The translations under genes were made by a program, and so were the position numbers. The notes beneath the pieces are model-generated. The model ran no database searches, had not been told where the DNA came from, and saw only the letters and a list, made by a program, of their open reading frames with translations. From a virus: a DNA stretch of 64,000 bases. This document shows positions 5 to 55,091 of this stretch, in pieces; position 1 is the first letter of the stretch, and every line of letters starts with the position of its first letter. The stretch is taken from IMG/VR virus record IMGVR_UViG_3300036852_000741, positions 41,352 to 105,351 of that record, one strand, 5' to 3'.

Positions 5-1972
5 GTGACGCGGCTGCAAGAGGCCGTCGAGGAGAGGACGGGCTACACCGTCGCGGAGAAGGGGCGGCTCGACCTGCTGGAGGCGGCGGCGACGGAGGGC
101 CGGGCGCTGCGCCGGGAACTGGACCTCATCGGCTGGAGCGTCCTCGACTACCTCAGCGGGCAGCCCCAGGAATTGCGCTTCGAGGAGCGCAAGAAGATGG
201 CCCAGCAGGCGCGCATGGTCTGGGCCCAGGACCCGCAGGCCGGCGCGGCGGTGGACCTCTCCAACGACTTCGTGTTCGGCCGCGGCGTGCCCAGGCCCAA
301 GTGTCGCGACGAGGCGGTGCAGGAGGTCGTGGACGAGGCGTGGGCCGATCCCGACAACCAGGCTGTGCTGACCTCTTACGAGGCCCAGATCGCGCTCAAC
401 ACCGACCTGGAGCTTCAGAGCAACCTCTTTTTGCTGATGTTCGACGGCGGCGAGGATGGCAAGGTCAAGCTCGGGCTGCTGGATCACGACACGGTGGAGA
501 ACGCGGTGCGCGATCCGCAAAACCGCCTGCGGGTCCTCTACTACGTCGCCAAGACGCGCCACTTCGAGTGGGACTTCACCCACGATCGCCCCGCTCTGCC
601 GGGTGCCGGCGGCAAGCCGCTGGTGTCCAAGACGATGTACTACGACCACTGGCGCAACGTGGCCGACGCCGAGGAGGAGGAACGAGAGGAGCCGCTTCCC
701 AAGCCGCCCAAGGAGAAGCACGCTGACGGCAAGGTGCGCCACGTGGCCGTCAACCGCACCGCGGAGATGGCCTTCGGGGTGCCGCGGATGCGGCGCACGA
801 TCCGCTGGTTCACGGCATACAACGACCTGCTCAAGGCGCGCGTGGACATGGCGCAGGCCGCCGCCGCGTTCATCATGAAGCGCAAGGTCCAGGGGACGCC
901 GACGCAGCTTGCCAAGCTGGCCGCCAAGGCGGTGTCGCGGAGGAGTGACCTGGCGGAGAGCGGCACGCTGACGGGCCCCCGGCCGGCGTCGGTGCTCAGC
1001 GAGTCAGAGACCGTCGAGCACGAGCCGCTGAGCCTGGACTCGGGCGCCGCCAACGCCGCCCAGGACGCGCAGATGATCCGCGCGCAGGTGAGTGCCGCCA
1101 CCCACTTCCCGCAGCATTACTTCGGCGGTGAGCCCGGCAGTTTGGCCGGGGCCACCGCCGCCGAGCTTCCGGTCATCAAGCACATCGAGGGGCGCCAGGA
1201 GGTGTGGGAGGGCGTCTTCCGCTGGTTCATCGACCGGGTGATCGAGAAGGCGGTGGACGACGGGCGCCTGGATCGCTACATCGAGGGCGAGGCGGCCGGG
1301 GGGCAGGGAGCCGAGGCGATCGGCAGCCCGAACGGCGGAGCGCCGGAGTGGGCGCCGGACCTGGGCGCACCGGCAGGCTCGCCGTATCTGGGCGAGGCCC
1401 ACGAGGACCAGGCCGACGACGAGCGCTCGACCGAGCGCGACCTGTCCTACGAGTTCTCGATGCCCAACGCGCTCAAGCGGATGATGGCCGACCTGGTGGG
1501 CGCGGTGACCAACATCGCGCGCACCTTCGACCCCAACAACACCAACGTCGAACTGAGCCGCATCCTGCTGGCGATCGTGCTGGGGGAGGGCCTGGAGGTC
1601 GAGGACCCGCAGGGCCTGGTGGAGCGCATCTTCCCCGAGGACTACGTGGACCCGGCGGTCGCAGCGGCGCAGGCGGCAGCCCAAGGCGGCGGCCCTCCGG
1701 GCGAAGGAGAGCCGCCGACGGCCACGGGCGCCGACGGCGAGCAGCACGGGGCAGGCAACCCATACGGGGCACCCATGAACTCGCCGTACCCCGAGGAGAT
1801 GGCGCAGGGGCTCAGCGAGGCGCGCTTCGGCGACCTCTCCGACGTGCTCCAGGTACGTCAGCGCGGCCGGGTCACCGAGGTCGAAAGGATGTTCAACGAG
1901 GAGGTGCGATCCGTCGTAGACGAGGCATTGGCGGGCCTGCTCGCCGGTGCGTCAACCAACGGCAAGCACTAG
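5..1972 (+). CDS. Phage portal protein
   Basis: 655 aa. Portal-like segments (AGAAVDLSNDFVFGRGV, AFGVPRMR..W, AATHFPQHYFG, RQEVW..VFR) and a low-complexity C-terminus. Lies upstream of a MuF-like gene in a head/tail cluster. The start codon is at the window edge. Confidence 0.8.
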   Translation: MTRLQEAVEERTGYTVAEKGRLDLLEAAATEGRALRRELDLIGWSVLDYLSGQPQELRFEERKKMAQQARMVWAQDPQAGAAVDLSNDFVFGRGVPRPKCRDEAVQEVVDEAWADPDNQAVLTSYEAQIALNTDLELQSNLFLLMFDGGEDGKVKLGLLDHDTVENAVRDPQNRLRVLYYVAKTRHFEWDFTHDRPALPGAGGKPLVSKTMYYDHWRNVADAEEEEREEPLPKPPKEKHADGKVRHVAVNRTAEMAFGVPRMRRTIRWFTAYNDLLKARVDMAQAAAAFIMKRKVQGTPTQLAKLAAKAVSRRSDLAESGTLTGPRPASVLSESETVEHEPLSLDSGAANAAQDAQMIRAQVSAATHFPQHYFGGEPGSLAGATAAELPVIKHIEGRQEVWEGVFRWFIDRVIEKAVDDGRLDRYIEGEAAGGQGAEAIGSPNGGAPEWAPDLGAPAGSPYLGEAHEDQADDERSTERDLSYEFSMPNALKRMMADLVGAVTNIARTFDPNNTNVELSRILLAIVLGEGLEVEDPQGLVERIFPEDYVDPAVAAAQAAAQGGGPPGEGEPPTATGADGEQHGAGNPYGAPMNSPYPEEMAQGLSEARFGDLSDVLQVRQRGRVTEVERMFNEEVRSVVDEALAGLLAGASTNGKH

Positions 1973-13013: not shown

Positions 13014-13033
13014 CTCATGATGTGTGCTACCAT
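13011..13033 (+). promoter_or_regulatory. Operator/extended -10 element
   Basis: TAGCTCATGATGTGTGCTACCAT, then a hairpin and CCGACCGAGGAG. Confidence 0.75.
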
Positions 13034-19022: not shown

Positions 19023-21953
19023 GTGACCCAGCCTGGCGCAGAGGAGCTTGTCGTGGGACGGGTCGATCCGTTCGTCGCTTTGCGGGGGCGGATCGAGGAG
19101 GCCAGCAACGGGGGCAAGGATGCTGGCGAGCGGGCGCTGGCGCTCAAGCGGGTGCGCTACGGCCTGCTGGCGGCACTGAGGGACGTGGAGGGCCGCATCG
19201 AGGAGGCCGAGGGCGACCGCGAGCGCGAGGTGCGTCGCGAGGTGCTGCGCCGGGTGCGTGAGAACGCCGACCTGCGCGAGCAACTGGAGCGCCGGGGGCT
19301 GGTGGCGCCGGAGCGCTTGGACGCGATGGGGCTGGTCTCCCATGACGCGCTCGATGAGGCCGGGGTCGAGGGGCGCCTGGAGGAGTTCGCGGCCGGCGCC
19401 CTGGCGAAGCTCGACAACATCGGGCAGGGCTCTGGCGTGTTGGGCAAGTGGCTGGAGAAACTGCACCCGCGCGATCGCGGGGGCCAGTTTGCGAAGAAGC
19501 CCGGCTCGGGGGTGATGACGGCTCACGTGGGCCCGGACGCCGGTGGCAGGGGGACGGTGAAGCGTACGGTCAAGGCACCGGCCGCCAAGCGGCCCGAGCG
19601 GGTGTTCAAGACGCAGAAGGTCATGCCCGAGGAGCTTGTGGCTCAGCAGAAGACGCCCGAGCAGAAGGACGTGCCGGAGGCCGAGCGTGTCGGGTTCGAG
19701 GGCCTGGCCCCGGGTGCTCGCCCGGCCGGGATGAGCGAGCGGCAGTGGCGCCAGGAGCGTGCTCGTACCCCGGAGGGGGCTCGTCGGACCAAGGGGCCGG
19801 TGCAGGCGCCCGAGGAGATTGAGAAGGCCAAGGCCAAGGACCGCGAGAAGCGCCAGCGGGGAATGGCCAAGCGTGTCGAGCGCGAGGTGGCCAAGGGCGT
19901 CAAGGGCGGGGCCGCCCAGCACTTCAATCCGGCCGGCAAGGTCAGCCAGAAGGCGCTGTTGGACTACGTGCGCAACACGCTGACCACGCCGTCAACGGCC
20001 GATGCGCACTCCGAGGTGCGCGGCGAGCAGCGCTTCTATCACCCCGACCGCAAGCAGCTTCACGACACGATTATCGACACGTTGCTGCGGCGCCCCAACG
20101 AGGACGGCACCATCTCGGCGTCCAACGAGTACCTGCCCTCCCAGGAGACGCCGGAGGTCCTGTTCATGGGCGGCGGCTATGCGGCGGGCAAGTCGAGCGC
20201 GGAGAAGTTGCTGCGGGCCCGCAACGAGGTGCCGGCGGACTCGCTGAAGATCGACCCCGACCAGATCAAGTCGATGCTGCCCGAGTTCGTGGCGACGGCC
20301 GGCCACGACCCGGAGGCCAACCTGCGCGTCTACGAGGAGGCGTGGGACATCGCCCAGGAGCTTCAGCGTCAGGCCAAGGAGCGCAAGCTCAACGTGGTGG
20401 TGGACGGCATCACCAACACCTCGGCCGACGAGGTGTTCGGTCGGGTGCAGAGCTTCAAGGACGCCGGCTACGGCAACGCGCGGATCGCCTACGTGGATGT
20501 GCCCACCGACGTGGCGCTCACCCGGGCCGCCGACCGGATGGCCAAGGCGATCGAGCGTGGCGACGGGCCGAACATGCGCCACATCCCCGAGCCGATCATG
20601 CGCGCTGTGCACCGCGACGTGGCGGCGACGATTCCGGCAGTGATGGGCGACCCCCGCCGCGAGGGCCTGGGGGTGCATGTGGACGTGTACGACGGCCAGT
20701 CGGGGGCGCTGCCGATCGCCTCGATCGCCCCCGACGCCGCCGAGCCGACGATCCACAACGACCCGGCGTGGGCGCGGCTGCGCGAGAAGGCCGACGAGAA
20801 GATCGCCGGGGTGGACGCGGCCAAGAGCGCCACCGACCCGTGGGCTGCCGGGCGCCTGGCGGAGAACCACGAGGACTTCTTCAACGTGACGCCGCAGACG
20901 ACGCGGGTGTCGCTGGACAAGCTGCGCCCGTCCAAGCAGCCCGAGAGCCAGCCCAAGTCGGTGGACAACGCCGAGCGGTTCATGCGTCAGGCGGCGGCCG
21001 GCGAGAAGGGCAAGCGCGACCCGATCAGGGTGCGCGACGATGGCGATGGGACCTACACCGTGCTCGACGGCAACGCCACCTACGGGGCGGCGGTGCGCAA
21101 CGACTGGAAGGACCTCCCCGTCGAGGTGGTCAACGCCAAGCCCGGCGGCGAGACCACGGGCGGAGCGGCGGTGCGGCCCGGCGATGACGAGGCCCGAGCC
21201 GTGCACCAGCGGATCGTGGAGTCTGTCGGCGATGTGCCCGCGGAGGCGCCTCCTCAGCCGGCCAGCACCGAGGAGGAGTTGTATGCGCTGGCGCCTGCCG
21301 CCCAGGAGGGCTTCGTTGACATCCTGGACCGCGGTGTGGGCGTCTCAGCGTCGTTGGGGGCGCGTACTCACCAGATCACGAACGAGGACGACTTCAAGGA
21401 GGCGGTGGCCGCGGTCGAGGCCGACCCCGACAGCCCGCACATCCTCCTGGCGCCGTTGAAGGGCACCGAGCGTGCGCGCGAGAAGGTCGAGGGCAAGTAC
21501 AAGGGCGACTGGGGCAAGCTCTCCGATGTTGTGCGCGGGACGGTCGTGGTGCCGGACATCGAGACGCTTGAACAGGCGATGGACGCGGTACGCCGGGAGG
21601 CGGAGGCCAACGGCTGGAAGGTCAGCGCCCTGGAGAACCGGATGGTCAACATCCAGGGCGAGGGCAAGCGTGCGCCGGGGCCGACCTCCTCGGGCTACAC
21701 GGACTTCAACATCCGCCTGGAGGCGCCCAACGGCATCCAGGCTGAGCTTCAGTTCAACACCTCGCACATGGTGATCGCCAAGGAGGGCACGCCAGGCGGC
21801 CACAAGCTGTTTGAGGAGGAGCGCACGATTGTGGATCGGGCGAACGCGAGGGGACTCCCGCTCACCGCCGCGGAGCGCGCCAGGGTGTTCGAGCTTCGCA
21901 AGCAGCAGACGGCGATCTACACCCAGGCATGGGAGGCCGGCATCCCATCGTAG
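19023..21953 (+). CDS. Zeta-toxin-like P-loop kinase / ParB-like / RelA-SpoT (small alarmone synthetase-like) fusion
   Basis: LFMGGGYAAGKS, IDPDQIK, VVVDG; PIRV...YTVLDGN; PLKGTERAREKV, LSDVVRG, SGYTDFN, AELQF, HKLFEEER; N-terminal WLEKLHPRDRGGQF. Confidence 0.8.
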   Translation: MTQPGAEELVVGRVDPFVALRGRIEEASNGGKDAGERALALKRVRYGLLAALRDVEGRIEEAEGDREREVRREVLRRVRENADLREQLERRGLVAPERLDAMGLVSHDALDEAGVEGRLEEFAAGALAKLDNIGQGSGVLGKWLEKLHPRDRGGQFAKKPGSGVMTAHVGPDAGGRGTVKRTVKAPAAKRPERVFKTQKVMPEELVAQQKTPEQKDVPEAERVGFEGLAPGARPAGMSERQWRQERARTPEGARRTKGPVQAPEEIEKAKAKDREKRQRGMAKRVEREVAKGVKGGAAQHFNPAGKVSQKALLDYVRNTLTTPSTADAHSEVRGEQRFYHPDRKQLHDTIIDTLLRRPNEDGTISASNEYLPSQETPEVLFMGGGYAAGKSSAEKLLRARNEVPADSLKIDPDQIKSMLPEFVATAGHDPEANLRVYEEAWDIAQELQRQAKERKLNVVVDGITNTSADEVFGRVQSFKDAGYGNARIAYVDVPTDVALTRAADRMAKAIERGDGPNMRHIPEPIMRAVHRDVAATIPAVMGDPRREGLGVHVDVYDGQSGALPIASIAPDAAEPTIHNDPAWARLREKADEKIAGVDAAKSATDPWAAGRLAENHEDFFNVTPQTTRVSLDKLRPSKQPESQPKSVDNAERFMRQAAAGEKGKRDPIRVRDDGDGTYTVLDGNATYGAAVRNDWKDLPVEVVNAKPGGETTGGAAVRPGDDEARAVHQRIVESVGDVPAEAPPQPASTEEELYALAPAAQEGFVDILDRGVGVSASLGARTHQITNEDDFKEAVAAVEADPDSPHILLAPLKGTERAREKVEGKYKGDWGKLSDVVRGTVVVPDIETLEQAMDAVRREAEANGWKVSALENRMVNIQGEGKRAPGPTSSGYTDFNIRLEAPNGIQAELQFNTSHMVIAKEGTPGGHKLFEEERTIVDRANARGLPLTAAERARVFELRKQQTAIYTQAWEAGIPS

Positions 21954-21973
21954 CTCACGATGTGTGCTATCAT
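21951..21973 (+). promoter_or_regulatory. Operator/extended -10 element
   Basis: TAGCTCACGATGTGTGCTATCAT overlapping the stop codon. Confidence 0.75.
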
Positions 21974-21994
21974 TCAGGCTGGAGGTGATGCCAC

Positions 21995-22306
21995 GTGGCA
22001 TCCAATGAGACCACGCCAGAGGTCCCCACCGGGGCCACGATGTACTACAGGGACAACGAGGGCAGCCTATTCCGGGAACGAGACGGGTGGGGCGGCGAGA
22101 TACTCAACGGCGACGAGTGGCAGTTCTACGCGATCGACATGACCAGGGTCGTGACGATTGACGAGGCCGAGGCCGAGGAGATGGCCGCCGGCACACCGCT
22201 GGACGCCGAGAACCAGGGGATCAGCGTAGCGGCCGGCATCAGTGCTGACCAGTACGCCGAGGAGACGCCTGGCGAGAAGCCGGAGGAGGAGCAGAGTGCC
22301 GTCTGA
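21995..22306 (+). CDS. Small acidic protein, candidate antitoxin/immunity protein
   Basis: GGAGGT RBS; very acidic; directly downstream of the toxin-like gene. Confidence 0.6.
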   Translation: MASNETTPEVPTGATMYYRDNEGSLFRERDGWGGEILNGDEWQFYAIDMTRVVTIDEAEAEEMAAGTPLDAENQGISVAAGISADQYAEETPGEKPEEEQSAV

Positions 22307-23192: not shown

Positions 23193-24146
23193 ATGGGGCG
23201 CCCGCGCGGCACCTATCTCAAGTGGGAGCCGCAGCCGGAGACGAAGGTGCTGCTCGGCCACGTCCGCCAGGTGCTGATCGAGTACCAGAGCTATCTGCCG
23301 CTGACGCTGCGGCAGGTGTTCTACCGCTTGGTTGGCGCGTTCGGCTACGACAAGAAGGGCACGTACGAGCGCCTCAAGGAGCACGTCCCCAAGGCTCGCC
23401 GGGCGCTCATGATCCCGATGTGGGCGCTGCGCGACGATGGCATCAGCGTGCGAGAGAACGCCGGCTACGACGGGCCCGCGCACTTCTGGGATTCGGTGAG
23501 GGCGAGCATCGACGGCTACCGCCGCAACCGCCAGGAAGGCCAGCCGCAGTTCATCGAGTTGGCGTGCGAGGCCGCCGGCATGGTGCCCCAGCTTGCGCGT
23601 GTGGCAGAGCCCTTCGGTGTCCCGGTGTACTCGGGCGGCGGGTTCAACTCGATGAGTGCCGTCATGGAGACCTACGACCGGGTGCTCACGCGCGACGTGC
23701 CGACCGTGTTCTTGCACGTGGGCGACTACGACGCCTCGGGCGAGCACATCTTCCGCTCGTTTACCAACGACGTGGAGAAGTTCGTGCGCGACATCGGCAT
23801 CCTGCGCGAGGGTGGTCATACGACCGCCGTGGGGCAACTCACCAACGTCGAAGACGTACAGCCCGGCGCGGAGTTCAGGCCCTATCGGATCGCGCTCACC
23901 CGCGAGCAGATCAGGGAGCACCAGGTCGAGATGGCCGATGCCAACCCCGAGGATGACCGGGCCTGGGATGGCGACCTGGAGGGGCGCACGGCTCAGTTGG
24001 AGGCGCTGCCGCCGGACGTGCTCGCGGACATCGTGCGCGAGGCGATCGAGGCGCGCTTCGACGCCGACGCCTTCCAGGCGATCCAGGACCGCGAGAGCGC
24101 GGACCGCGACAGGCTCTGGGGGGACCTGGATGACGCCGGTCTCTGA
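23193..24146 (+). CDS. Topoisomerase VI-A/Spo11-like Toprim protein
   Basis: LTLRQVFYRLV N-terminal helix; ELACEA; YSGGGF.S; HVGDYDASG; RIALT.EQI; QLEAL.P. Confidence 0.75.
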   Translation: MGRPRGTYLKWEPQPETKVLLGHVRQVLIEYQSYLPLTLRQVFYRLVGAFGYDKKGTYERLKEHVPKARRALMIPMWALRDDGISVRENAGYDGPAHFWDSVRASIDGYRRNRQEGQPQFIELACEAAGMVPQLARVAEPFGVPVYSGGGFNSMSAVMETYDRVLTRDVPTVFLHVGDYDASGEHIFRSFTNDVEKFVRDIGILREGGHTTAVGQLTNVEDVQPGAEFRPYRIALTREQIREHQVEMADANPEDDRAWDGDLEGRTAQLEALPPDVLADIVREAIEARFDADAFQAIQDRESADRDRLWGDLDDAGL

Positions 24147-36911: not shown

Positions 36912-39900
36912 GTGGCCACCTTCGTAGATCGCTCGAACGGCGGCCAGGTCGGGCGCGATGGGTTCCGGCTGGGCTACGAGCTTCTGGGCATCGACCGGCT
37001 GGGCCCGTACGACACGTTCACGGGCAACGTCTCGGGCGGGCTCAAGCACCTGCTGGTCGGCAAGTCGGGTGGCGCCTACCCGGGCTACTGGGCCCTGAGC
37101 GGCGGGCTGTTCGGGACGTTCGGGTCGCCGCTCGTCGGCGGGGTCGTCGCTGGCGGCGACAAGCACTCGGCGATCACGAAGCCCGGCGGAGCGAGTGCCA
37201 GCGGACAGGCCGGCGGGACGCGCACGGTGCTGCGCTCCGCCTCCGGCGGCGGGACCGGGCCAGCGTCGGGCGGTGGCACCAAGGCGCCGCTGGCGACTAA
37301 GGCCGGAGGTGGCAAGGCCAGTCCGAACCTGCTGCGCAACGGTGATTTCGAGGTGGACGTGGCGGGGTGGGCGGTCTACCTATCGGGCACGATCACGTTT
37401 GTCCGGGCGACGGACTGGGCCGACACGGGCGCTGCCTCCATGCGGGTGACCGCCGCGGCGGCTGGCAACTTCATCACGAGCGATCGGGGCACGGCCGGGA
37501 TGCCGGTGATCGCCGGGACGAGCTACACGCTGGCAGCCACTCGCAACGTGCTCGACCCGACGACGGTCATCTACGTCCAGTGGTTCAACTCGGCGGGCAC
37601 GTACCTCACCCAGAACTCGGTGCTCTCCTCGACGCTGACGGGGGCCTTTCGTCAGCAGGCGCAGGTCACTGCCCCGGCGAATGCGGCGTTTTGTGCGCTC
37701 GTTCCCGGCGGTGAGGCCAGCGCGTTCGATTTCTACCTAGACACGATTCGCTTTGGGCTGGCGGGCGCGGCGCCTGGTGGCGTCAGGACCATCTTGGTCA
37801 CCAAGGGCGGCGGAGCGACGGCGGCGGGCGCTTCGGGTGCCGTCAAGCATCCCGCCATCTCGAAGGCGAGCGGGGCGGCGGGCGGCTGCATCGGTGGAGG
37901 CGCACGCTCGACGCTGGGCTCCAAGAGCGGCGGTGGGGTGATCCCGCTGGGCGGGGCGCTCATCAACCTGCTCACCAACCCGAGCCTGGAGACCAACACC
38001 ACCGCCTGGGCCATCAACCCGGGTGGGGTGGGCGGTAGCGCCACCCTGACCCGGATCACGACCGACTCGGTGGTTGGTGCGGCTGCGGCCCAGCAGGCGG
38101 GCACGTCTGGCAGCAGCTACGGCATCTACTTCTACGAGGCCGCCGGCACAGAGCCCTTTGTGTCCCCCGGCCAGTCGATTGCGGTGCGGGCCTCCGTGAA
38201 GATGGTGGGCGCGGCGTTCACGAACCTGCTTCGTGTCGGGGTGCGCTTCTACAACACGGCGGGCGCCTACCTCTCGGAGAACACGGTCGGTTCCGTTAGC
38301 AACCCGGTGGCCGATACGTGGTACGCGCTGAGCGGCAGCATGGTCGTGCCGGCGGGGGCGTACCGGGCGTCGATCCAGGTCAACACGAACTCGCTGGGGC
38401 TGGGCACCTCGTTCACCCTGGTCTACGACGCGCTGCTGATGGTCATGGGCGCCACGGTACCCGCCTACTTCGACGGGGACTCGGCGCTGGCGGGCTGGAC
38501 GGGCACGGCGCACGCGTCCACCTCGAAGCTCACGGTGATTCCGGGAATCGGCCGGTCGATCCTGGTCACCAAGCCCGGTGGTGCGGCGGCGGGCGGGAGC
38601 GGCGGTGGCACTCGAACGGAGCCGGTCTCCAGGGCGGGCGGGGGAAGCGCCCGGGGGGCGGCCGGTGGCGACAAGGACATTCTGGTTACGAAGGCCGGGG
38701 GCGCGACTGCGGTCGGCACTCCTGGTGGAATCAAGCACCCGGCCGTTGCCAAGAGCGGCGGCGCGCAGGGCGCGGCGAGTGGCGGTGGCGTCAAGCATCC
38801 GGCGGTGACCAAGCCGGCGGGCGCCGCGGGCGGTGGGACCGCGGCGGGTACGCGCACCGTCCTGGTGACCAAGCCGGGCGGCGCCTCGGGTCGCGGTATC
38901 GCCAGCGGCGACAAGGATGTCCTGACCGCCAAGGCGGGCGGTGCGAGCGCGACGGGCACCCCCGGTGGCGTCAAGCATCCGGTCGTCCTCAAGGCCGAGG
39001 GGGCGCCCGCCGCCGGTGTGGGGGGCGGCATCAAGCACGTTCTGTTGCCCTATGCGTCCGGGGGCGCGATCGCGACCGGCAGCGCTGGCGGCACGAAGAA
39101 GCCGCTGGTCACCAAGCCGGCCGGCGCGGCGGGCGCGGCAAGCGGTGGGGGGGCCAAGACGGCGCTGGCCACCCGGTCGGGCGGCGGGGTCTCGCAAGCC
39201 GGGCCGGGCCCAACGGACCTGCTGCGCAACGGGTCGCTTGAGCAGGGCAACACCGGCTGGACGATCAACGGGGTCGCCACGGTCACCCGCATCTCGGGCG
39301 CTGCCTACGACGGGGCGTGGCTGCTTTCTGTGGCCGCCCCCGGCTATGTGGATGGCGGGGCGTTCATCCCGTTTCACCAGGTTGCGCCGGGCGATGTGCT
39401 GAGCCTGTCGGTGTTTGTGCGCGGCGAGGTGGGCGGCGAACGGGTCCACATCCGTGCGCGCGAGGGGCTGCTCAATGGTGGATTCCTGCGCGAGAACACG
39501 GGCTCGCACTTCACGCTGACGACTGGCTGGACGCGGGTGAGCATGGTCACCCCGGCGATGGGTGCGAGCACTGCTCTGCTGACCCTCAAGATCGTCAACT
39601 CGGACACCTTCGCGGCCACGTTCTATGTCGATGCGGGCCAGGAGACCCAGGGGGCTGACCTCAAGGCATACGTCAGTGATCCGGGCGCTGGCACTAAGAC
39701 CGTCCTGGTCGGCAAGTCGGGCGGCGCCGTGGCCAGCGGTGTCGGGGGCGGCGTCAGGCACGTGCTGTTGCCCTACGAGGCCGGGGGGGCGCAGGGCACC
39801 GCGAGCGGTGGCGCCGTCAAGCACCCCGCGGTCTCCAAGGCCAACGGCGCGAGCGCGGCGGCCTCTGCGAACGGAACGCGCAAGAGCTTGGCTACCAAGC

Positions 39901-42900
39901 CGGGCGGCGGCCAGGGCGTGGGCGTTGGTGGCGGCACTCGCACGGTGCTGCTCACCAAGCGGGCGTCGCCGTTGACGTTCATCAGTGCGGAGGCCGATCC
40001 GCAGCCGCGGGGAAGCGGCGTCGGCGCTGGGGCTGTCGCCGCGTACTGGAGTGCTGTTGAGGATTCGGCCTCGCCGTCGGGCTGGGCCCTGGTCGCCGCG
40101 GACGTACCGGCGGCGGTGAACAACGACCCCTACCACCAGCCCTCCGATAGCCCCGGCGCGCTCGTCATGTACTTCGGCGTGCAGGCCGGGGATACCGTGA
40201 CGCTCAGCGTCTGGATGCGCATGAACGCTGCGGCGATGGCGCAGGCGGCCAACGTCGGCAACGGCCGCGGGGTGGCCCAGGTCTGGTGGCACACCTCCAG
40301 CGGCTATTTCGTCAACAGCCTGCCGCGGCCTGCGACGGCGGACACATGGGAGCGTGTGCGCGCCACCTATGCGGTGCCGGCCAACGCCGACGCCTTCTTC
40401 CTGCGCTTCTACGGGTCCAGCGACCGGGCTGGCGGCGAGGTCCGCTGGGCGGGCATCCAGCTTGCGCGCAGCGCAACGGTGATGGCCCCCAACGAGGGGG
40501 CCGGCGGCGGCACTCGCACCATCTTGGCGACGAAGGCTGGCGGCGCGCTGGGGACGGCCAACCCGGGCGGCGTCAAGCACGTTCTGTTGCCCTACAAGGC
40601 CAATGGGGCGCAGGGAGCCACTGTCGGGGGGGGCGTCAAGCATCCGGCGATCACCAGGTTGGCGGGTGCCAACGCCGGTGCAGTCGGCGGCGGCACGCGC
40701 ACCGACTTGGCGACCAAGCCGGGCGGCGGGCAAGCCGCTGGTGTCGGTGGCGGCACGCGGTCGGTGCTGGTCTCGAAGGCCGGCGGCGTCAGCGGCGTGG
40801 CGGGCCACGGTGGCGTCAAGCACCCAGCGGTGAGCAAGGGCGCGGGCGCCAGCGGCTCCAGCGCGGGCGGCGCGGTCAAGCACCCGGCGGTCGGTAAGTC
40901 CTCCGGCGCGATCATGGTGTCGAGTGCCGTCGGTACGCGCACCACCCTGGTCTCCAAGCCGGCCGGGGGGGCTGCGGCGGCCACTGCCGGCGGGTCCAAG
41001 ACGGCCCTGGTGACCAAGCCCGGCGGCGCGGCGGCTGCCGGCTCGGTGCTGGGTACACGCACCGTTCTTGTCACCAAGGCGGCGGGCGCCACGGCGGCGG
41101 GCGGGCATGGTGGCGTCAAGCACGTCGCGCTCGGCAAGGCCAGCGGGGCGTCGGGTGTCACGAGCGCAGCGGGTACTCGCACGATCCTGGTCACCAAGTC
41201 GGCGGGCGCCAGCGCGCTGGCCTCTGCGGGCGGGGCTCGCACCGAGCCGGTCGGCCGGGCGGGCGGCGGCCAGGGCGTGGCGGTTACGGGGGGTACGCGC
41301 ACCGCGCTGGTGACCAAAGCTGGCGGCGTTGTGGGCACCGCGGCTCCTGGCGCTGTCAAGCACCCGGCGGTCCGCAAGGACGCGGCGGTGGCGCTCGCGG
41401 CGACGGCGGCCGGCGGTATCAAGCACCCGGCTGTCGGCAAGGCTGGCGGCGCGCAGGCGATGGCGGTGGCCGGCGCCGTCAAGCACCCGGCGATCACGAA
41501 GTCCGCCGGGGCGGTGGCATCGGCGTCTGCGGCCGGCCCCCGCACCCTCCTGGTCGGCAAGCCCGGCGGCGGCCAGGCGTCGGGGGCCGGAGCGGGCACC
41601 CGGACTCTGCTGGTCTCTCGGTCCGGCGGCGGCCTTGGGGTGGCCAGTGCTGCTGGCACTCGCACGGCGCTGGTCACCAAGCCCGGCGGCGGTACTCAGG
41701 CCGGGGCTGGCGGCGGAGCACGGACTGACCTGGCCAGCAAGCCGGGCGGTGCCATCGCCGTTGGCACCTCCGGCGGCGTCAAACGCCCCGCGGTCTTCAA
41801 GGCCAACGGCGCGACGGCCGCAGCGAGCGGCAGCGGGGTGCGCAGCGTTCTGCTGCCCATCCGCACGGGAGGAGGCGCTGCGGGCGCCAGCGCTACTGGT
41901 ACACGCACGAGCCTGGTCGCCAAGTCGGCGGGCGCGCTGACGACTGGGCTGGCCGGCGCAACGCGTACGGCCCTGATCGCTCGCTCGGGTGGTGGCCAGG
42001 CGGTCGAGCAGGCCGGTGCGATCAGAACGCTTTTGCTCGCGAAAGCCGGAGGCGCCGTTGCCTTCGGAGCGCCGGGCGCCGTCAAACATCCGGCGGTCGC
42101 GAAGTCCAATGGTGCGACGACGAGTGCGAGCGCCGGTGGCATCAAGCATCCGGCTGTCACCAGGGCCGCCGGTGCCGTGGCGGGCGCGTCGAGCTTTGGT
42201 GCGCGCACCGTCCTGGTCACCAAGTCGGCCGGGGGCACCGGGGGCGCAAGCGGCGGAGGCACACGTACCCAGCCGGTCTCCAGGGCTGGCGGTGGCATCG
42301 CAACCGGTAGCGCAGGCGGTGTTCGCAGCGCGCTGGTGACCAAGCCCTCGGGGGCAGTTGGTGTCGCGGCGCCTGGGGGAATCAAGCACCCCGCCGTCGC
42401 CAAGGCCGGCGGTGCGGCGGGTGTGGCTCTCGCTGGGGGGGTCGGGCACCCGGCCGTTGCGAAATCGGCTGGCGGGACAGGGGTCGCGTCGGGGGCGGGC
42501 ACTCGCACCGCTCTGGTCACCAAGTCGGCGGGCGCCGCCGCTGGCCTGGCTGGTGGCGGCACACGCACCGAGCCGGTTTCTAAGCCGGGCGGCGGGTTTG
42601 CGCTTGCTGTCCCTGGTGGCGTCCGCACCGTGCTTGTCACGAAGGTCGGCGGGGCAAGCGCTGCCGCTGGGCCGGGGGCCGACAAGCACCCGGTGGCAAT
42701 CAAGGCCAACGGGGCGCTGGCGTCGCTTGTTGGTGGCGGGGGGAAGCACCCAGCGGCTTCCAGGTCCGGTGGCGCGGCCACTACGACGACTGCCGGGGGT
42801 GACAAGCATCTAGCGGCCACCAAGCCGGCCGGGGCGCTGGCATCGGGAGCGGGCGGCGGCACGCGCACGGTCTTGATCGCGGAGGCAGGAGGGGGCGCTT

Positions 42901-45900
42901 CCACCGCCGTTGCCGGCGGCGTTCACACATTGCTGGGCATCAAGACTGGGGGCGGCCAGGCGACGGCAGCGCCGGGCGCCGACAAGCACCCGGCTATCAC
43001 GAAGCCGGCGGGGGCAAGTGCTGGTAGTCAGGCGGGGGGCACTCGCACGGCGCTGGTCACCAAGCCCGGCGGTGCCAGTGCGGTGGGTGACGCCGCCGGG
43101 AACAAGTATCTGCTGGTCACCAAGGACGGCGGTGCCATCGCCGTTGGCGCCCCCGGCGGCGTCAAGGTGCAGTCGGGCGGCGCCGCCATAGCAGCCGCCG
43201 CGGGCGGCACCTGGGCGATTCTGCTCGGTCGTTCGGGCGGCGGCGTGGTGGCGCTCGGCGGGCAGCCGATCAACCTGCTCATCAACCCGAGCGCCGAGAC
43301 GGACACCGTGGGATGGACGCGCTCTCCGGGCGGCGCGGGCGGTAGCTCCACGCTGACCCGGATCACGACCGACAGTGTGGTGGGCACCGCCGCCTTTGAG
43401 CAGGCGGGCACCTCCGGCAGCCAGTGGGGCATCTACCTCTACAGTGCCTACAGCGACGTGGCACCCGGTCAGCGGGTCGCGGTGCGCGGCTGGGTCAAGG
43501 TGCCGTCCGCGGTCACGGGGCTCAACTCGCTGACCATCGGGGTTCGCTACAGCAACGCCGCTGGCGGATACCTCACCGAGACCACCCTCCAGGCGCGCAG
43601 CAACCCGGCCGTCGACACGTGGTACGAGCTAACGGGCACGATGGTCGCGCCGGCCAACGCGCGCCAGGTTGCCGTCCAGTTCGTCACGAACGCTCTGCCC
43701 CTGGGAACCGCGTTCGCGCTGCGTTACGACGCGGCGCTCATGGCGCTGACCGAGGCCCTGCCGGCGTATTTCGACGGCGACACGGCGGGCGCAGCATGGC
43801 TTGGCACCCCGCACGCCTCGGCGTCGCGGTCAACGACGGTTCTCGGGATCGGCCGGTCGGTCCTGGTCACCAAGCTGGGCGGCGCGAGCGGGACTGCGAA
43901 TGTCGGGGGTACGCGCACCGAGCCGGTTGCCAGGACGGGCGGCGGCAGTGCCAGCGGGGTTGCCACTGGCGACAAGAGCGCCCTGGTCATCAAGGCCGGC
44001 GGGGGCCTCGTCGGCTACTACGCGGTGCCTTCCGGGCTTCTGCTTGACCTAGCGGGCAGTGTGGTGGTGGGGGGGATGGTTGCGGGTGGCCGCAGGGCCG
44101 CGATTAGCACTCGGCTGGCCGGTGCGGTGGGCTCGGGGGCCGGCGGCGCAGTGCGTACCGTTTTGGTCGGCAAGGCGGGTGGGGCCGTTGCGTCCGGTAC
44201 GAGTGCCGGCTCCCGGACCGCCCTCGCCACCAGGTCGGGCGGCGGGCGGGCGGTCGCAGCGCCTGGGGGCGCCAAGTACCTCGCGGTGGTCAAGGCGCAG
44301 TCGCCGCTGAGCTATATCAGCGCGGTCTCTGACCCGCAGCCGCGTACGAGTGGCGCCGGGTCGGGAGTGGTCGCCCCGTACTGGAGCGCCGTGCCGGACT
44401 CCTCGTCGCCGTCGGGGTGGGCACTGGTGGCTGCCGATGTGCCCTCTGCGGTGAGTTCTGATCCCTACCGCCAGCCGCTTGACGGCAACGGCGTCGTGAC
44501 GATGTTCTTCGGCGTTCAGCCGGGCGATACGGTGACGCTCGCGGTCTGGATGCGCCTGAACGCCGCGGCTTTTGCCCAGCCGGTCGGGCCCGGCAACGGG
44601 CGCGGCGTGGCCCAGGTGTGGTGGCATGTCCCCAGCGGCTACGTCAGGAACCACCTACCGCGGCCGGCGCTGGTGGATACGTGGGAGCGCGTGTGGGCGA
44701 CCTACACGGTGCCGACGGACGCGGACGCGTTCTTCATTCGCTTCTACGGGTCCGGCGACCAGCCGGGCGGCGAGGTCCGTTGGGCTGGCATCCAGTTGGC
44801 GCGCACGGCGGTGGCGGCCCCGAGCCCGAATGAGGGTACGGGCGGCGGGGTGCGCACGGTGCTGGCCGCCAAGGCGGGCGGCGCACTCGCAGCGGGCGTG
44901 ACGGACGGCACGCGCAGCGCGCTCGTCACGAAGGGCGCAGGAGGCGTTGCCGCGGGCGTGGGGGCGGGAGACAGAACCGAGCCCCTGTCGAAGGCCGGCG
45001 GCGGCGTGACGGCGGCGGCGGCCGGTGGCGTCAGGCGAGCGGAGGCCCTCAAGGCTGGGGGCGCGACCGCGGGCGCGGTGTTGGGCGCCAGCACGAGCGT
45101 TTTGCTCTCCCAGGCGGGCGGCTCCGCGGCCGTGGCTTCGGCGTTCGGGTCGCGCACCGCACTGGCCTCCAAGGGCGCCGGTGGCCTAGCTGTCGCGGCG
45201 AGTGGAGGGGTGCGCGTTGTCCCGGCGGTCAAGCTGGGCGGTGCCGCGGCGTCGGGCGTTGGCGGAGGCACGGCGACTCGGGATAGTAGGCGCACGGGGG
45301 GTGCGCAGGCTGCGGGCGAGGGTGGCGGAAGCCTCACTCTGCGCGTTGGTACCTCGGGCGGGGCGAGTGCCGTTGGCATCTCGGGCGGCGATAAGCACGT
45401 CGCCTGGCGCCGCGGTCAGCATGAGGTGTCCCGGCCGGTAGCGCGGGCCGGGGGCATCAAGACGCTCGTGCGCACGGCGGTGGGCGGCGCTGCCGTTAGT
45501 GCCAGGGCCGCCGGCCAGCGCACGGGGACGGTCGACAAGGCCGGCGGCGGAGCGACCGGCCACCTGGCATGGCAGTTGCTCATCTTCGGCCAGACGTACA
45601 CGGGCGGTGCCCAGGCCGGCGGCGTCAAGCGTCCGATCGTGACCCGGACGGCAGGCGCGGTGGCGGCGGGCGCCGGCTCCGGCGGGCGCCGGGTCCAGGT
45701 CACCAAGCTCGGGCTGGGTGGCTCGATGTACCCGACCTTCGGTGGCGGCGTCCGCACGCTGCTGGTGACCAAGGATGGTGGTGGCCGGACCTCCGGTCAG
45801 GGCGGCGGGTCTCGCATGGTCCCGGGCGCCAAGGACGGCGGCGGGGCGTTGGGTGCGAGTGCCGGCGGTCAGCGCGTCGCTGTCTTCTCGCTGCGGGGCG

Positions 45901-46829
45901 GCGGCGCCGTGCTGGCGCAGGGGGCGGGCAGCGCATTCCGTGTTCTGGTGCGCAACGGAGGCGCGGCGGTCACTGCCGTCGCGGTTGGCATCAGGAGTAC
46001 GGCGATCAGCAAGGCCGCTGGCAGCCTGGGGGCGGCGACGGCTCTGGGCGTCCGCACAACGGTCGTCCTCAAGGCGGCTGGTGCGATGGCCGGCGCGCGG
46101 GCGGGTGGCGCTCGTCTTGGTGTGCTTGTCCGCACCGGCGGGGCGCGGGCCGTGGCCAGCGGCGCCGGTGACCGCACGGTCGGCGCGCTCAAGACGGGCG
46201 GCGCCAGCGTGCGGGCGCAGGCGCATGGAGTGCGCTACCTGTTGCGCGTCGCCGTCGGCGGGGCCCTGAACGCGCTGGCCACCAGCGGGGTCCGCTCGGT
46301 GGTCGTTGCCCGCTCGGGCGGCGCCACGCTGAGCCTGACCACCACGACGACGCGCGAGGGGCTGGTCACGCTTGGCGGCGGCGCGCGAGCGAGTGCGGTG
46401 GCCGGCGGCGCGAGGGGGGAACAGCGCCTGGCCGGTGGCGCGCGTACCAGCGCGACAGTCGGCGGGCGGCTCACCCTGCTCATCGTCCGCCCTGGCGGTG
46501 GCGCTTTCGGCGGACGCGGCGGCGAGGTCACGGCCCTGCTCGCCCTGCTCGCTGGGCTCGTCCAGCCCTACCGGGTGCGGTTTGTTGGTGACCGCACGAG
46601 CGTGACCGTAGAGCCGACCGCCACCGTTGTCCTGCTCGTGTCCGTGCGCGCCTATGCTGTCCTCGAACTGCCGATGGATGCGCGCCCGATGCGTGAGGAG
46701 TACGCGGCCACCGTCGAGCCTGGCGGCACTCTGCGCGTCGAGGACGGGGACGCCGACGCGGACGTGCAGGACGCCACGACGGTCGTTGTGGGCGCTGCCC
46801 GCGGAAGGTCGCTGGAGGAGTACGGCTAG
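36912..46829 (+). CDS. Giant Gly/Ala repeat fibre protein with CBM-like domains
   Basis: 3305 aa. About 21-aa repeats (GG..A...GG.KHPAV.K / GG.RT.LV.K); NLLRNGDFE, NLLTNPSLE, DLLRNGSLE and NLLINPSAE domain starts. Confidence 0.75.
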   Translation: MATFVDRSNGGQVGRDGFRLGYELLGIDRLGPYDTFTGNVSGGLKHLLVGKSGGAYPGYWALSGGLFGTFGSPLVGGVVAGGDKHSAITKPGGASASGQAGGTRTVLRSASGGGTGPASGGGTKAPLATKAGGGKASPNLLRNGDFEVDVAGWAVYLSGTITFVRATDWADTGAASMRVTAAAAGNFITSDRGTAGMPVIAGTSYTLAATRNVLDPTTVIYVQWFNSAGTYLTQNSVLSSTLTGAFRQQAQVTAPANAAFCALVPGGEASAFDFYLDTIRFGLAGAAPGGVRTILVTKGGGATAAGASGAVKHPAISKASGAAGGCIGGGARSTLGSKSGGGVIPLGGALINLLTNPSLETNTTAWAINPGGVGGSATLTRITTDSVVGAAAAQQAGTSGSSYGIYFYEAAGTEPFVSPGQSIAVRASVKMVGAAFTNLLRVGVRFYNTAGAYLSENTVGSVSNPVADTWYALSGSMVVPAGAYRASIQVNTNSLGLGTSFTLVYDALLMVMGATVPAYFDGDSALAGWTGTAHASTSKLTVIPGIGRSILVTKPGGAAAGGSGGGTRTEPVSRAGGGSARGAAGGDKDILVTKAGGATAVGTPGGIKHPAVAKSGGAQGAASGGGVKHPAVTKPAGAAGGGTAAGTRTVLVTKPGGASGRGIASGDKDVLTAKAGGASATGTPGGVKHPVVLKAEGAPAAGVGGGIKHVLLPYASGGAIATGSAGGTKKPLVTKPAGAAGAASGGGAKTALATRSGGGVSQAGPGPTDLLRNGSLEQGNTGWTINGVATVTRISGAAYDGAWLLSVAAPGYVDGGAFIPFHQVAPGDVLSLSVFVRGEVGGERVHIRAREGLLNGGFLRENTGSHFTLTTGWTRVSMVTPAMGASTALLTLKIVNSDTFAATFYVDAGQETQGADLKAYVSDPGAGTKTVLVGKSGGAVASGVGGGVRHVLLPYEAGGAQGTASGGAVKHPAVSKANGASAAASANGTRKSLATKPGGGQGVGVGGGTRTVLLTKRASPLTFISAEADPQPRGSGVGAGAVAAYWSAVEDSASPSGWALVAADVPAAVNNDPYHQPSDSPGALVMYFGVQAGDTVTLSVWMRMNAAAMAQAANVGNGRGVAQVWWHTSSGYFVNSLPRPATADTWERVRATYAVPANADAFFLRFYGSSDRAGGEVRWAGIQLARSATVMAPNEGAGGGTRTILATKAGGALGTANPGGVKHVLLPYKANGAQGATVGGGVKHPAITRLAGANAGAVGGGTRTDLATKPGGGQAAGVGGGTRSVLVSKAGGVSGVAGHGGVKHPAVSKGAGASGSSAGGAVKHPAVGKSSGAIMVSSAVGTRTTLVSKPAGGAAAATAGGSKTALVTKPGGAAAAGSVLGTRTVLVTKAAGATAAGGHGGVKHVALGKASGASGVTSAAGTRTILVTKSAGASALASAGGARTEPVGRAGGGQGVAVTGGTRTALVTKAGGVVGTAAPGAVKHPAVRKDAAVALAATAAGGIKHPAVGKAGGAQAMAVAGAVKHPAITKSAGAVASASAAGPRTLLVGKPGGGQASGAGAGTRTLLVSRSGGGLGVASAAGTRTALVTKPGGGTQAGAGGGARTDLASKPGGAIAVGTSGGVKRPAVFKANGATAAASGSGVRSVLLPIRTGGGAAGASATGTRTSLVAKSAGALTTGLAGATRTALIARSGGGQAVEQAGAIRTLLLAKAGGAVAFGAPGAVKHPAVAKSNGATTSASAGGIKHPAVTRAAGAVAGASSFGARTVLVTKSAGGTGGASGGGTRTQPVSRAGGGIATGSAGGVRSALVTKPSGAVGVAAPGGIKHPAVAKAGGAAGVALAGGVGHPAVAKSAGGTGVASGAGTRTALVTKSAGAAAGLAGGGTRTEPVSKPGGGFALAVPGGVRTVLVTKVGGASAAAGPGADKHPVAIKANGALASLVGGGGKHPAASRSGGAATTTTAGGDKHLAATKPAGALASGAGGGTRTVLIAEAGGGASTAVAGGVHTLLGIKTGGGQATAAPGADKHPAITKPAGASAGSQAGGTRTALVTKPGGASAVGDAAGNKYLLVTKDGGAIAVGAPGGVKVQSGGAAIAAAAGGTWAILLGRSGGGVVALGGQPINLLINPSAETDTVGWTRSPGGAGGSSTLTRITTDSVVGTAAFEQAGTSGSQWGIYLYSAYSDVAPGQRVAVRGWVKVPSAVTGLNSLTIGVRYSNAAGGYLTETTLQARSNPAVDTWYELTGTMVAPANARQVAVQFVTNALPLGTAFALRYDAALMALTEALPAYFDGDTAGAAWLGTPHASASRSTTVLGIGRSVLVTKLGGASGTANVGGTRTEPVARTGGGSASGVATGDKSALVIKAGGGLVGYYAVPSGLLLDLAGSVVVGGMVAGGRRAAISTRLAGAVGSGAGGAVRTVLVGKAGGAVASGTSAGSRTALATRSGGGRAVAAPGGAKYLAVVKAQSPLSYISAVSDPQPRTSGAGSGVVAPYWSAVPDSSSPSGWALVAADVPSAVSSDPYRQPLDGNGVVTMFFGVQPGDTVTLAVWMRLNAAAFAQPVGPGNGRGVAQVWWHVPSGYVRNHLPRPALVDTWERVWATYTVPTDADAFFIRFYGSGDQPGGEVRWAGIQLARTAVAAPSPNEGTGGGVRTVLAAKAGGALAAGVTDGTRSALVTKGAGGVAAGVGAGDRTEPLSKAGGGVTAAAAGGVRRAEALKAGGATAGAVLGASTSVLLSQAGGSAAVASAFGSRTALASKGAGGLAVAASGGVRVVPAVKLGGAAASGVGGGTATRDSRRTGGAQAAGEGGGSLTLRVGTSGGASAVGISGGDKHVAWRRGQHEVSRPVARAGGIKTLVRTAVGGAAVSARAAGQRTGTVDKAGGGATGHLAWQLLIFGQTYTGGAQAGGVKRPIVTRTAGAVAAGAGSGGRRVQVTKLGLGGSMYPTFGGGVRTLLVTKDGGGRTSGQGGGSRMVPGAKDGGGALGASAGGQRVAVFSLRGGGAVLAQGAGSAFRVLVRNGGAAVTAVAVGIRSTAISKAAGSLGAATALGVRTTVVLKAAGAMAGARAGGARLGVLVRTGGARAVASGAGDRTVGALKTGGASVRAQAHGVRYLLRVAVGGALNALATSGVRSVVVARSGGATLSLTTTTTREGLVTLGGGARASAVAGGARGEQRLAGGARTSATVGGRLTLLIVRPGGGAFGGRGGEVTALLALLAGLVQPYRVRFVGDRTSVTVEPTATVVLLVSVRAYAVLELPMDARPMREEYAATVEPGGTLRVEDGDADADVQDATTVVVGAARGRSLEEYG

Positions 46830-54041: not shown

Positions 54042-55091
54042 ATGTACGGACCCTACGGGGAGTTCGGGAAGCCCATTCGCCTCCTGGAGGCGTACAAGGA
54101 ATGGCGTGACCTGCGCCTGGAGGAGGCCGACTCCAAGGCCGACTTCCCGTCGTTCCTCATGGGACCGGTGACGCAGAGCCTGTGGCATGGCTACTCGCGG
54201 GCGCAGTCGCAGTACCGCCGCTACACCCGCGTCGAGAACGTCCAGGACTTCCGCGAGCGTCGTCTGCGCGGCCTGAACGGGCTCAGCGGGATCGGCTACG
54301 TCGGCGACCACGGCGAGTACCCGGGCATGAAGCGGACCGAGCGCCCGACCGCCACTCTGGTGATCGACACCTACGGCGGCGTGTACTCGATCACGCGGCA
54401 AGCGATCCGCAACGACGACACGAATGAACTGCTCAACCGCAACCCCGCCGACATGGGCTACGCGGCCGGGCTGTTCGTCCTGGAGACGATCGTCGCGCTG
54501 ATCGAGTCCAACCCGACGGCGCCCGACGGCGCCGCGATGTACTCGACCGGCCGCGGCAACCAGACGACCTCTGCGCTTGCCGAGGACTCGCTGGCCACCG
54601 CCGTCGGTGCGATGGAGGACCAGCTTGACGACGACGGCCGGCGCATCCATGTCACGCCCGCCGTCCTCGTCGTCAAGAACGCCCGGATGCAGTTGATCGC
54701 CAACCGCATCCTCAACTCGCAGTTCACGGGTACCCAGGCCACGTACACGGGCGCGGCGGGCGCCGGGACCGCGGTGTTCGACAAGGGCACCGTCAACCCG
54801 CTGGCGGGCATCCTGCCGGCCAACGGCGTGGTCCGCGACCCGTTCTTCTCGGACCCCAACGACTGGTACATGTTCGCCGACCCCAACGACGTGCCGGCGT
54901 TCGCCGTCGGCTTCCTCGATGGGCGCGAGGAGCCGTTCGTCGGGCTCAAGGACCCGATGGTGCGGGCGGCGCTGGGCGCCGGGACGGACCCGTACTCGTT
55001 CGAGTTGGACGCGATCGACCTCAAGGTCAGGTTCGACTTCGGGTCCGCTCCGGTCGACCCGAGAGGCACGTATCGGGGAGTGGTGGCGTGA
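54042..55091 (+). CDS. Major capsid protein (Mu gpT-like)
   Basis: ADFPSFL, V.DFR, TYGGVYSITRQAIRNDD, GFLDGREEP, KVRFDFG..D.RG. Confidence 0.9.
   Translation: MYGPYGEFGKPIRLLEAYKEWRDLRLEEADSKADFPSFLMGPVTQSLWHGYSRAQSQYRRYTRVENVQDFRERRLRGLNGLSGIGYVGDHGEYPGMKRTERPTATLVIDTYGGVYSITRQAIRNDDTNELLNRNPADMGYAAGLFVLETIVALIESNPTAPDGAAMYSTGRGNQTTSALAEDSLATAVGAMEDQLDDDGRRIHVTPAVLVVKNARMQLIANRILNSQFTGTQATYTGAAGAGTAVFDKGTVNPLAGILPANGVVRDPFFSDPNDWYMFADPNDVPAFAVGFLDGREEPFVGLKDPMVRAALGAGTDPYSFELDAIDLKVRFDFGSAPVDPRGTYRGVVA

Follow-up and report, generated by a model that had tools for sequence, protein, structure and literature searches.

Zeta-type kinase, ParB-like domain and Tas1-like synthetase fused in one phage protein, with a small acidic neighbor as candidate immunity gene

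Three domains share a single phage polypeptide, namely a kinase of the Zeta type, a domain resembling ParB and a Tas1-like synthetase predicted to make (p)ppApp, and the small acidic open reading frame (ORF) behind it is a credible candidate for its cognate immunity gene. The locus lies at positions 19,023 to 22,306 of a window of 64,000 nucleotides, the whole stretch of DNA analyzed here, which comprises bases 41352-105351 of the 105-kb IMG/VR virus record IMGVR_UViG_3300036852_000741; the record is labeled a provirus, with an estimated completeness of 85%. On balance, the large protein, P0001, is probably a "polyvalent" phage effector accompanied by a gene for immunity against it. The elements of the locus are listed below in window coordinates, which are used throughout unless the genome is named.

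19023-21953, plus strand: the large gene, encoding the multidomain protein P0001; open for 976 codons, with a probable start at GTG 19053
19050-19421, plus strand: N-terminal helical module (residues 10-133), with a predicted local distance difference test score (pLDDT) above 90, common to relatives with other cargo
19446-19505, plus strand: HPR tag KWLEKLHPRDRGGQFAKKPG (residues 142-161), with the core LHPRDRGGQF
19506-19922, plus strand: basic, mostly disordered linker (residues 162-300); isoelectric point (pI) of 10.6 for residues 141-300
19995-20822, plus strand: Zeta-toxin-like P-loop kinase domain, with Walker A K390, D411-P-D413, D461 and R505 present
20877-21137, plus strand: ParB/sulfiredoxin-fold domain (residues 619-705), detected with Foldseek, with a conserved DGN(A/S)T loop
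21240-21950, plus strand: Tas1/Apk-like RelA-SpoT-homolog (RSH) synthetase (residues 740-976), with five Syn motifs
21951-21973, plus strand: TAGCTCACGATGTGTGCTATCAT, a promoter-like motif with the extended -10 form TGnTATCAT; its TAG is the stop codon of the large gene
21987-22002, no strand assigned: leader of the small gene, with the perfect palindrome GATGCCACGTGGCATC (16 bp) across GTG 21995; single copy in the window
21995-22306, plus strand: small acidic ORF P0002, candidate immunity or antidote gene; 103 residues from GTG 21995 (Shine-Dalgarno GGAGG) or 88 residues from ATG 22040

An earlier note, made from the letters of this DNA, had described the locus as a triple fusion with intact motifs behind an HPR tag, and this architecture is borne out. 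Along the chain the order is N-terminal helical module, HPR tag, basic linker, Zeta, ParB/sulfiredoxin fold and synthetase, with the Zeta domain recovered by Pfam, the synthetase by profile search and Foldseek, and the ParB/sulfiredoxin fold by Foldseek. The motifs that had been named are all present: Walker A GGGYAAGKS at residues 383-391, VLDGN at 680-684 and LHPRDRGGQF at 147-156, together with the RelA/SpoT motifs K813..R817..K821, D835..R838, G891-Y892, E908-L-Q910 and H927..F930-E931. Profile alignments to zeta toxin (1GVN) and to Tas1 place the catalytic residues correctly rather than out of register. Conservation tells the same story, as K390, D411, D413, D461 and R505 of the kinase and K813, R817, K821, D835, R838, G891, Y892, D894, E908, Q910 and H927 of the synthetase are invariant across six orthologs (49-63% identity). 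With at least two conflict-related effector domains on one polypeptide of a portal-terminase phage, P0001 belongs among the phage polyvalent proteins. The G+C content at third codon positions of its gene is 0.91, usual for coding genes here. The true start is probably GTG 19053, which the Shine-Dalgarno sequence GAGGAG precedes and from which the protein has 966 residues; a catalogued 966-residue protein, P0003, starts at this codon. No second copy (paralog) of any P0001 domain was found elsewhere in the record.

The identity of the synthetase is drawn from both structure and sequence. Modeled with an alignment of 32 relatives, the C-terminal 377 residues form two domains with a mean pLDDT of 92.1. 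The top Foldseek match is Tas1 (6OX6; E 3.9e-8), ahead of SaEAS (a Streptomyces synthetase that is exported), SAS1 and RelP, with CapRel only 38th in the ranking, and comparison of the C terminus with Tas1 6OX6 gives an E value of 1.9e-6 by phmmer and of 5.6e-18 by profile. The Mg-binding Asp and the catalytic Glu are among the synthetase motif residues, most of which, aligned to Tas1, are also invariant in wider sets of 32 and 57 relatives. Adenosine and guanosine pyrophosphokinases differ at syn2 (R-Y-T versus A-V-R), syn3 (G-x-N versus S-x-H) and syn4 (Y-H versus I-R) (PMC12226406). P0001 has R838-G-T840 at syn2, D894-F-N896 at syn3 and F911-N912 at syn4, the last of these like the V-N of Tas1; D894 is specific to the family and replaces a Gly of Tas1. 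SaEAS, which has similar motifs, makes both (p)ppApp and (p)ppGpp. By these signatures the domain appears to fit an adenosine 3'-pyrophosphokinase better than a (p)ppGpp synthetase, and (p)ppApp is the predicted product. The alarmone synthetase of the earlier note keeps its motifs and fold, whereas (p)ppGpp seems to suit the syn2 to syn4 residues less well than (p)ppApp.

Ahead of the synthetase, residues 619-705 match Noc, KorB, ParB, sulfiredoxin, SbnI and the free serine kinase SerK in Foldseek. The proposed ParB/sulfiredoxin fold is upheld by these structural matches, with weak sequence scores (Pfam ParB_N E 0.011, 16.2 bits against a cutoff of 26.3; Noc profile E 0.006). The arginine box (GERRxR or DGxHR) is lacking; the loop reads DGNAT in P0001 and DGN(S/A)T across the clade. 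With a local hidden Markov model (HMM), all 66 of 66 proteins with this type of ParB-like domain were found to carry the synthetase as well, ~90 residues downstream. Within this sample, which was gathered by similarity to P0001 and from which ParB-only proteins may have escaped, the ParB-like domain and the synthetase appear to behave as a fixed two-domain unit.

The Zeta domain is matched by Pfam Zeta_toxin (PF06414) at residues 369-540 (E 9.1e-23; 81.2 bits against a cutoff of 22.3), and with a profile built from 22 relatives it can be aligned to zeta toxin in the structure 1GVN (E 5.6e-7). In that alignment K390, D411/D413 (opposite the catalytic Asp region of zeta) and the lid residue R505 find their counterparts; a profile is required for this, a single-sequence phmmer search of the Zeta region against the PDB having returned only noise. 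In Zeta and PezT kinases, GTxR is the signature for binding of UDP-N-acetylglucosamine (UNAG). P0001 lacks it, and the EGTGRT of zeta aligns to DGITNT here. By its residues the domain appears to be catalytically competent, although UNAG is probably not what it phosphorylates, and with DGITNT in place of GTxR, action on cell wall precursors, which the earlier note named among the known activities of such toxins, is not to be assumed. In one relative, P0028 (1311 residues), a LAGLIDADG/Hom_end homing endonuclease region interrupts the Zeta domain just past the Walker A region; this insertion is probably an intein.

The small neighbor, P0002, is acidic (pI 4.05), with 24 Asp and Glu residues against 5 Lys and Arg. 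An acidic ORF of 103 residues had been described at this place, and both the ORF and its acidity are real; its start may instead be ATG 22040, giving 88 residues, where the family alignments begin. P0002 and gp033 of Bordetella phage PHB04 share the motifs M-x-Y-x-x-N-E-G-x-L-F-R and I-D/S-E-A/E-E-A-x-x-M, and the PHB04 gene comes directly after a gene with a C-terminal Tas1-like domain and before a metal-dependent phosphohydrolase gene. Profile searching brings the family to at least 87 members of ~70 residues, none with a Pfam domain. When viral loci were fetched with the small family alone as the query, upstream DNA was present in 16 of 17, and in each of these a gene that runs up to the start of the small gene carries a Tas1-like domain (hmmsearch E 1e-46 to 1e-52). 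A family member also lies right behind a portal-synthetase fusion that had been found independently (L013). In two near-identical viral contigs (L017 and L018; RSH E 5.9e-43), the small gene stands tail to tail with a fusion of Phage_portal_3 and synthetase (935 residues). An HD_4 hydrolase gene follows the small gene immediately in 3 of 5 whole records, including that of the cultured Bordetella phage PHB04, and the order of synthetase, small gene and HD hydrolase in these relatives matches the published toxin-immunity layout apk2-iapK-aph1 (PMC10083569, PMC12226406).

Two further comparisons bear on P0002 itself. With a family HMM built without P0002, its ORF was the sole match when all 1463 segments from the six frames of the record were searched (E 1.3e-4; next 2.9), and the alignment started at ATG 22040. 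In addition, the gene in this slot differs between related loci. Where a second Zeta domain takes the place of the ParB-synthetase unit (L003), the slot holds an unrelated acidic ORF of 97 residues with a similar promoter-like motif ahead of it; where the large protein ends after the first Zeta domain (L004), there is no ORF in the slot and the locus runs into a homolog of the window ORF at 22242. Across the three loci compared, the content of the slot varies along with the effector at the C terminus, a variation that would conform to a toxin-immunity pattern. The antitoxin put forward by the earlier note can be retained as a credible cognate immunity or antidote gene, a predicted function that draws on the linkage of its family to Tas1-like synthetase genes in 16 of 16 cases.

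The promoter-like motif between the two genes belongs to a recurrent set. The 23-nucleotide motif TAGCTCACGATGTGTGCTAYCAT occurs on the plus strand of the record in at least 12 near-identical copies, each in a short gap between genes; they include copies at window positions 13022, 21962, 23142, 24375 and 30118 (genome 22069-71470). A conserved leader, CCCGACCAAGGAGG, often lies 3' of it, and the TAG of the motif is often the stop codon of the preceding gene. Copies also stand ahead of several unrelated neighboring genes and are absent from the structural genes past 30 kb of the window; none lies directly upstream of the large gene, for which the nearest is at 13022. A generic sigma-70 promoter scan of 17-25 kb found nothing, so it is the repetition of the motif that carries the promoter reading. 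On that footing, the motif can be taken for a promoter of the extended -10 type, transcription of the small gene probably has a start of its own, and the two genes may differ in timing. The operator-promoter reported earlier as overlapping the stop codon is therefore a real element but a generic one, as one of at least 12 copies, and does not bear out independent timing. The 16-bp palindrome is, on its own, statistically unremarkable.

The N-terminal helical module of P0001 matched nothing of known fold or family. For the helical module the best BFVD match has an E value of 0.4, an Atlas search came back blank, and comparison with 48,161 PDB representatives gave generic helical matches only (Z under 6). 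The HPR tag stands at the end of this module, with the consensus [FW]xExLHPRxRxG[KR][FW]. It is present in 67 of 190 proteins (P0001, P0002 and fetched relatives), sometimes in two copies, usually 100-170 residues ahead of an effector domain and often once per effector module, and its R150 and G154 are invariant among relatives. A text search found no published description of the tag, and "HPR" occurs 0 times in the accessible portions of the polyvalent-protein paper (PMC5512222). We suggest that the tag may be a capsid-loading label. Three other proteins of the same phage, at window 3533, 28573 and 29748, carry an LHPRxRxGR[FW] tag and are candidate fellow cargo proteins. The first is a protein of 1040 residues after the portal, the second a protein of 916 residues with three peptidoglycan-binding domains, and the third the product of the next ORF (206 residues). 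A related contig (L005:481-5907) encodes a protein of 1808 residues with four HPR tags, at residues 11, 339, 609 and 1147.

Relatives of P0001 are modular, and few carry the whole combination. By Megablast, the locus had no counterpart among 50,697 phage records, and tblastn returned only the Zeta domain of Cyanophage PSS2, in its "minor head protein," and the synthetase domain of Bordetella phage PHB04. The triple-fusion locus was not found in viral or genome collections with a single protein or an ortholog alignment as the query, and one metagenome scan gave only relatives with the N-terminal module and a Zeta domain. Sequence searching did find five further full-length orthologs, along with dozens of proteins in which the N-terminal module and Zeta domain are joined to other C termini, such as a second Zeta domain. 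Among 57 relatives with the synthetase module, portal domains (Portal_Mu, Phage_portal_2 or Phage_portal_3) are present in 5 and MuF in 1; the other fusion partners are InPase, topoisomerase IB (4 of 57), ADP-ribosyltransferase (ART), NUDIX and peptidoglycan-binding domains. Relatives with the Zeta module likewise include fusions of Portal_Mu and Mu_F.

The surroundings of the locus are those of a phage structural arm. The leftmost 19 kb of the record hold minus-strand genes for replication and recombination (DnaB, RecT, a PD-(D/E)XK nuclease and ParB), and the remainder, on the plus strand, is the terminase-portal-capsid arm, marked by the following genes.

Upstream of the window, in the same plus-strand arm: large terminase (TerL), lambda-gpA-type
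5-1972, plus strand: portal-like gene (PHROG E 2.6e-33)
54042-55091, plus strand: major capsid gene
58314-59771, plus strand: tail sheath gene

The large gene lies between portal and capsid in the same orientation, with many small genes and an RNase H gene nearby. Together with the portal and MuF fusions of relatives and the common HPR tag, this position makes packaging in the virion plausible. The G+C content of the window is ~70%, and the host of this high-GC phage, which is large and uncultured, is probably an actinomycete. Neither host flank nor integrase was found in the record; a 592-residue ORF at genome 20267 was considered as an integrase and dropped, having no Pfam match. Downstream, at window 23193-24146, a protein of 317 residues matches a PHROG annotated as DNA topoisomerase (E 2.7e-27). 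As topoisomerase IB is among the domains fused to synthetase-module relatives, the neighborhood of the large gene may represent a larger polyvalent protein divided into separate genes. Farther on, a giant ORF of 3305 residues (window 36912-46829) has a CBM_4_9 carbohydrate-binding domain at residues 2121-2259; its product is probably a fiber or appendage protein.

Four findings underlie the scheme that we infer: what the domains are, how well their motifs are conserved, how modular the family is and how the small family is genetically linked to the synthetase. The N-terminal helical module and the LHPRxRGGKF tag would serve as the carrier, followed by the basic disordered linker and by three nucleotide-handling domains on one chain: a Zeta kinase with an acceptor pocket altered relative to UNAG kinases and then the ParB/sulfiredoxin and synthetase unit. 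The capsid would take up the protein, which would then enter the host along with the DNA. The synthetase would move pyrophosphate from ATP onto ATP or ADP, yielding (p)ppApp, and this synthesis would drain ATP and block growth; experiments with Tas1 and Apk2 have demonstrated both effects. The small acidic protein would bind and block the synthetase, sparing the producing cell or lysogen, and may also switch the enzyme off after entry. What this scheme keeps from the first interpretation is the triple fusion, the intact motifs and the credible antidote; what it no longer takes for granted is a UNAG kinase, (p)ppGpp as a product and independent timing. A bolder version is unlikely, in which the ParB-like domain and synthetase form an obligate enzyme whose ParB-like half binds or processes a nucleotide, DNA or RNA substrate, so that the product or target is something other than plain (p)ppApp, with the whole protein one of several capsid cargos loaded through LHPRxRGGKF and the separately promoted antidote turning the injected enzyme off.

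Several observations weigh against a packaged effector with its own immunity gene. Pfam RelA_SpoT (PF04607) does not match P0001; it matches 14 of 57 relatives at E values up to 0.001, with most of the scores seen near the 27-bit cutoff. The Zeta or ParB-like domain, each without the canonical substrate motifs, could be regulatory or inactive on known substrates. The case for packaging of the large protein is one of association, and we regard it as evenly balanced. No MuF (PF04233), PAAR, portal or metallopeptidase domain was found in the protein, the portal-like gene lies 17 kb upstream with many small genes and the RNase H gene around the locus, and the promoter-like motif is scattered along the arm. 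All of this would suit an unpackaged host takeover enzyme, made during infection, that rewires nucleotide pools or shuts off host metabolism, with the small protein tuning its activity. Such an enzyme is nevertheless improbable in our judgment, since Zeta and synthetase relatives are repeatedly fused to portal or MuF domains and the HPR tag is common to other large head-region proteins of this phage; the basic disordered linker would, in addition, be typical of internal head proteins.

For the small gene, the contrary evidence is that P0002 is a weak, divergent family member (18.5 bits) without the GPAR and DWG motifs of the family, and that it has a single close homolog among those found, P0190. 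It has no detectable similarity to Tis1 in the PDB; Pfam Tis1_ImmP (PF24154) matches neither this record nor five small-family records, with no candidates passing the prefilter, and an Atlas search toward Tis1 immunity gave a weak lead only (0.81). This record also lacks an HD_4 hydrolase, and the slot comparison spans just three loci. P0002 could then serve as a chaperone or adaptor, or be the product of an unrelated small phage gene, its resemblance to the family a chance match of two short acidic motifs. We hold this to be rather unlikely, as P0002 is the single match among the 1463 segments and falls exactly in the expected slot and orientation, the alignment runs from the start Met of the family to the IDEAEA..M motif, and the family is linked to the synthetase in 16 of 16 viral loci; a chaperone would, moreover, still be a cognate partner. 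A different role for the pair is prophage defense, as a toxin-antitoxin or abortive infection system of the toxSAS type (CapRel; Phrann gp29/gp30) expressed by the lysogen and triggered by superinfection. A toxic-type synthetase beside a small partner of the neutralizing type with its own promoter is in keeping with this, as is the provirus label of IMG/VR, and toxSAS modules with roles in phage defense are documented in the accessible portions of two reports (PMC7229694, PMC11245113). Defense is nonetheless very unlikely given a chain of 976 residues with several effector domains, co-oriented inside the terminase-portal-capsid arm, and given portal fusions among family members. The nearest solved relative, moreover, is the secreted effector Tas1 and not CapRel, the left arm carries phage replication genes, and host flank and integrase were not identified. 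We therefore return to the polyvalent effector with a cognate immunity gene as the probable account of the locus.

Synthetases of (p)ppApp act as powerful toxins that drain ATP, and examples are known from type VI secretion, from toxin-antitoxin modules and from MuF proteins of phages; the locus offers a natural test case for why phages carry them. It raises the questions of whether the ParB-like half alters substrate or product, what the substrate of a Zeta kinase without the UNAG motif is, and whether the ~70-residue family is a general neutralizer of Tas1-like enzymes.

Comparison with known systems places P0001 closest to three described groups. Polyvalent proteins, as presented in the accessible portions of Iyer, Burroughs, Anand, de Souza and Aravind (2017; PMC5512222), include RelA/SpoT, ParB-superfamily and Zeta-like kinase components and are predicted to be packaged in the capsid and injected. 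Like the phage-type members described there, P0001 has several conflict-related enzyme domains on one polypeptide of a terminase-portal phage, and its relatives show the domain network set out in those portions of the paper. Unlike them, it has no detected zincin metallopeptidase, MuF, ArdC or LPD domain, and its ParB-like domain is not of the DdrB type by Pfam. The Apk2 MuF toxins with IapK and Aph1 (Ahmad 2023, PMC10083569; Paulet 2025, PMC12226406; Jamet 2017, PMC5576092) share with P0001 a C-terminal Tas1-like synthetase of phage origin followed by a small gene, and in PHB04 and other relatives the order of portal, synthetase protein, small gene and HD hydrolase is Apk2-like. P0001 departs from these systems in having no MuF domain, in its distance from the portal, in the absence of an Aph1-type hydrolase from the record and in the Zeta and ParB-like domains upstream of its synthetase; in PHB04-like phages, furthermore, the small gene abuts the toxin gene, whereas here it has its own promoter-like element.

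Tas1/Apk1, the type VI effector of Pseudomonas aeruginosa (6OX6), is the closest relative of residues 740-976 among solved structures and in sequence, with syn2, syn3 and syn4 signatures that appear to be shared. It differs in its delivery, by PAAR and the type VI secretion system instead of a phage, in its partner Tis1, which lacks detectable similarity to P0002, and in the Gly at syn3 where P0001 has D894. With Zeta and PezT kinases (1GVN) and the MuF-Zeta fusions, P0001 shares the P-loop kinase fold family, the Walker A Lys, the catalytic Asp of DxD and the lid Arg; it departs from them in DGITNT for GTxR and in having no antitoxin gene of the epsilon or PezA type, and the Zeta-only relative L004 is likewise without a partner ORF. 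The class to which the locus belongs is thus already described, both as polyvalent phage proteins and as phage (p)ppApp synthetase toxins with immunity. The accessible portions of PMC5512222 mention neither the triple combination nor the fixed ParB-like and synthetase unit nor the N-terminal helical module. New, as far as we could find, are the combination of domains on a non-MuF carrier, the pairing of the ParB-like domain with the synthetase as a fixed unit and an unnamed small family linked to Tas1-like synthetases.

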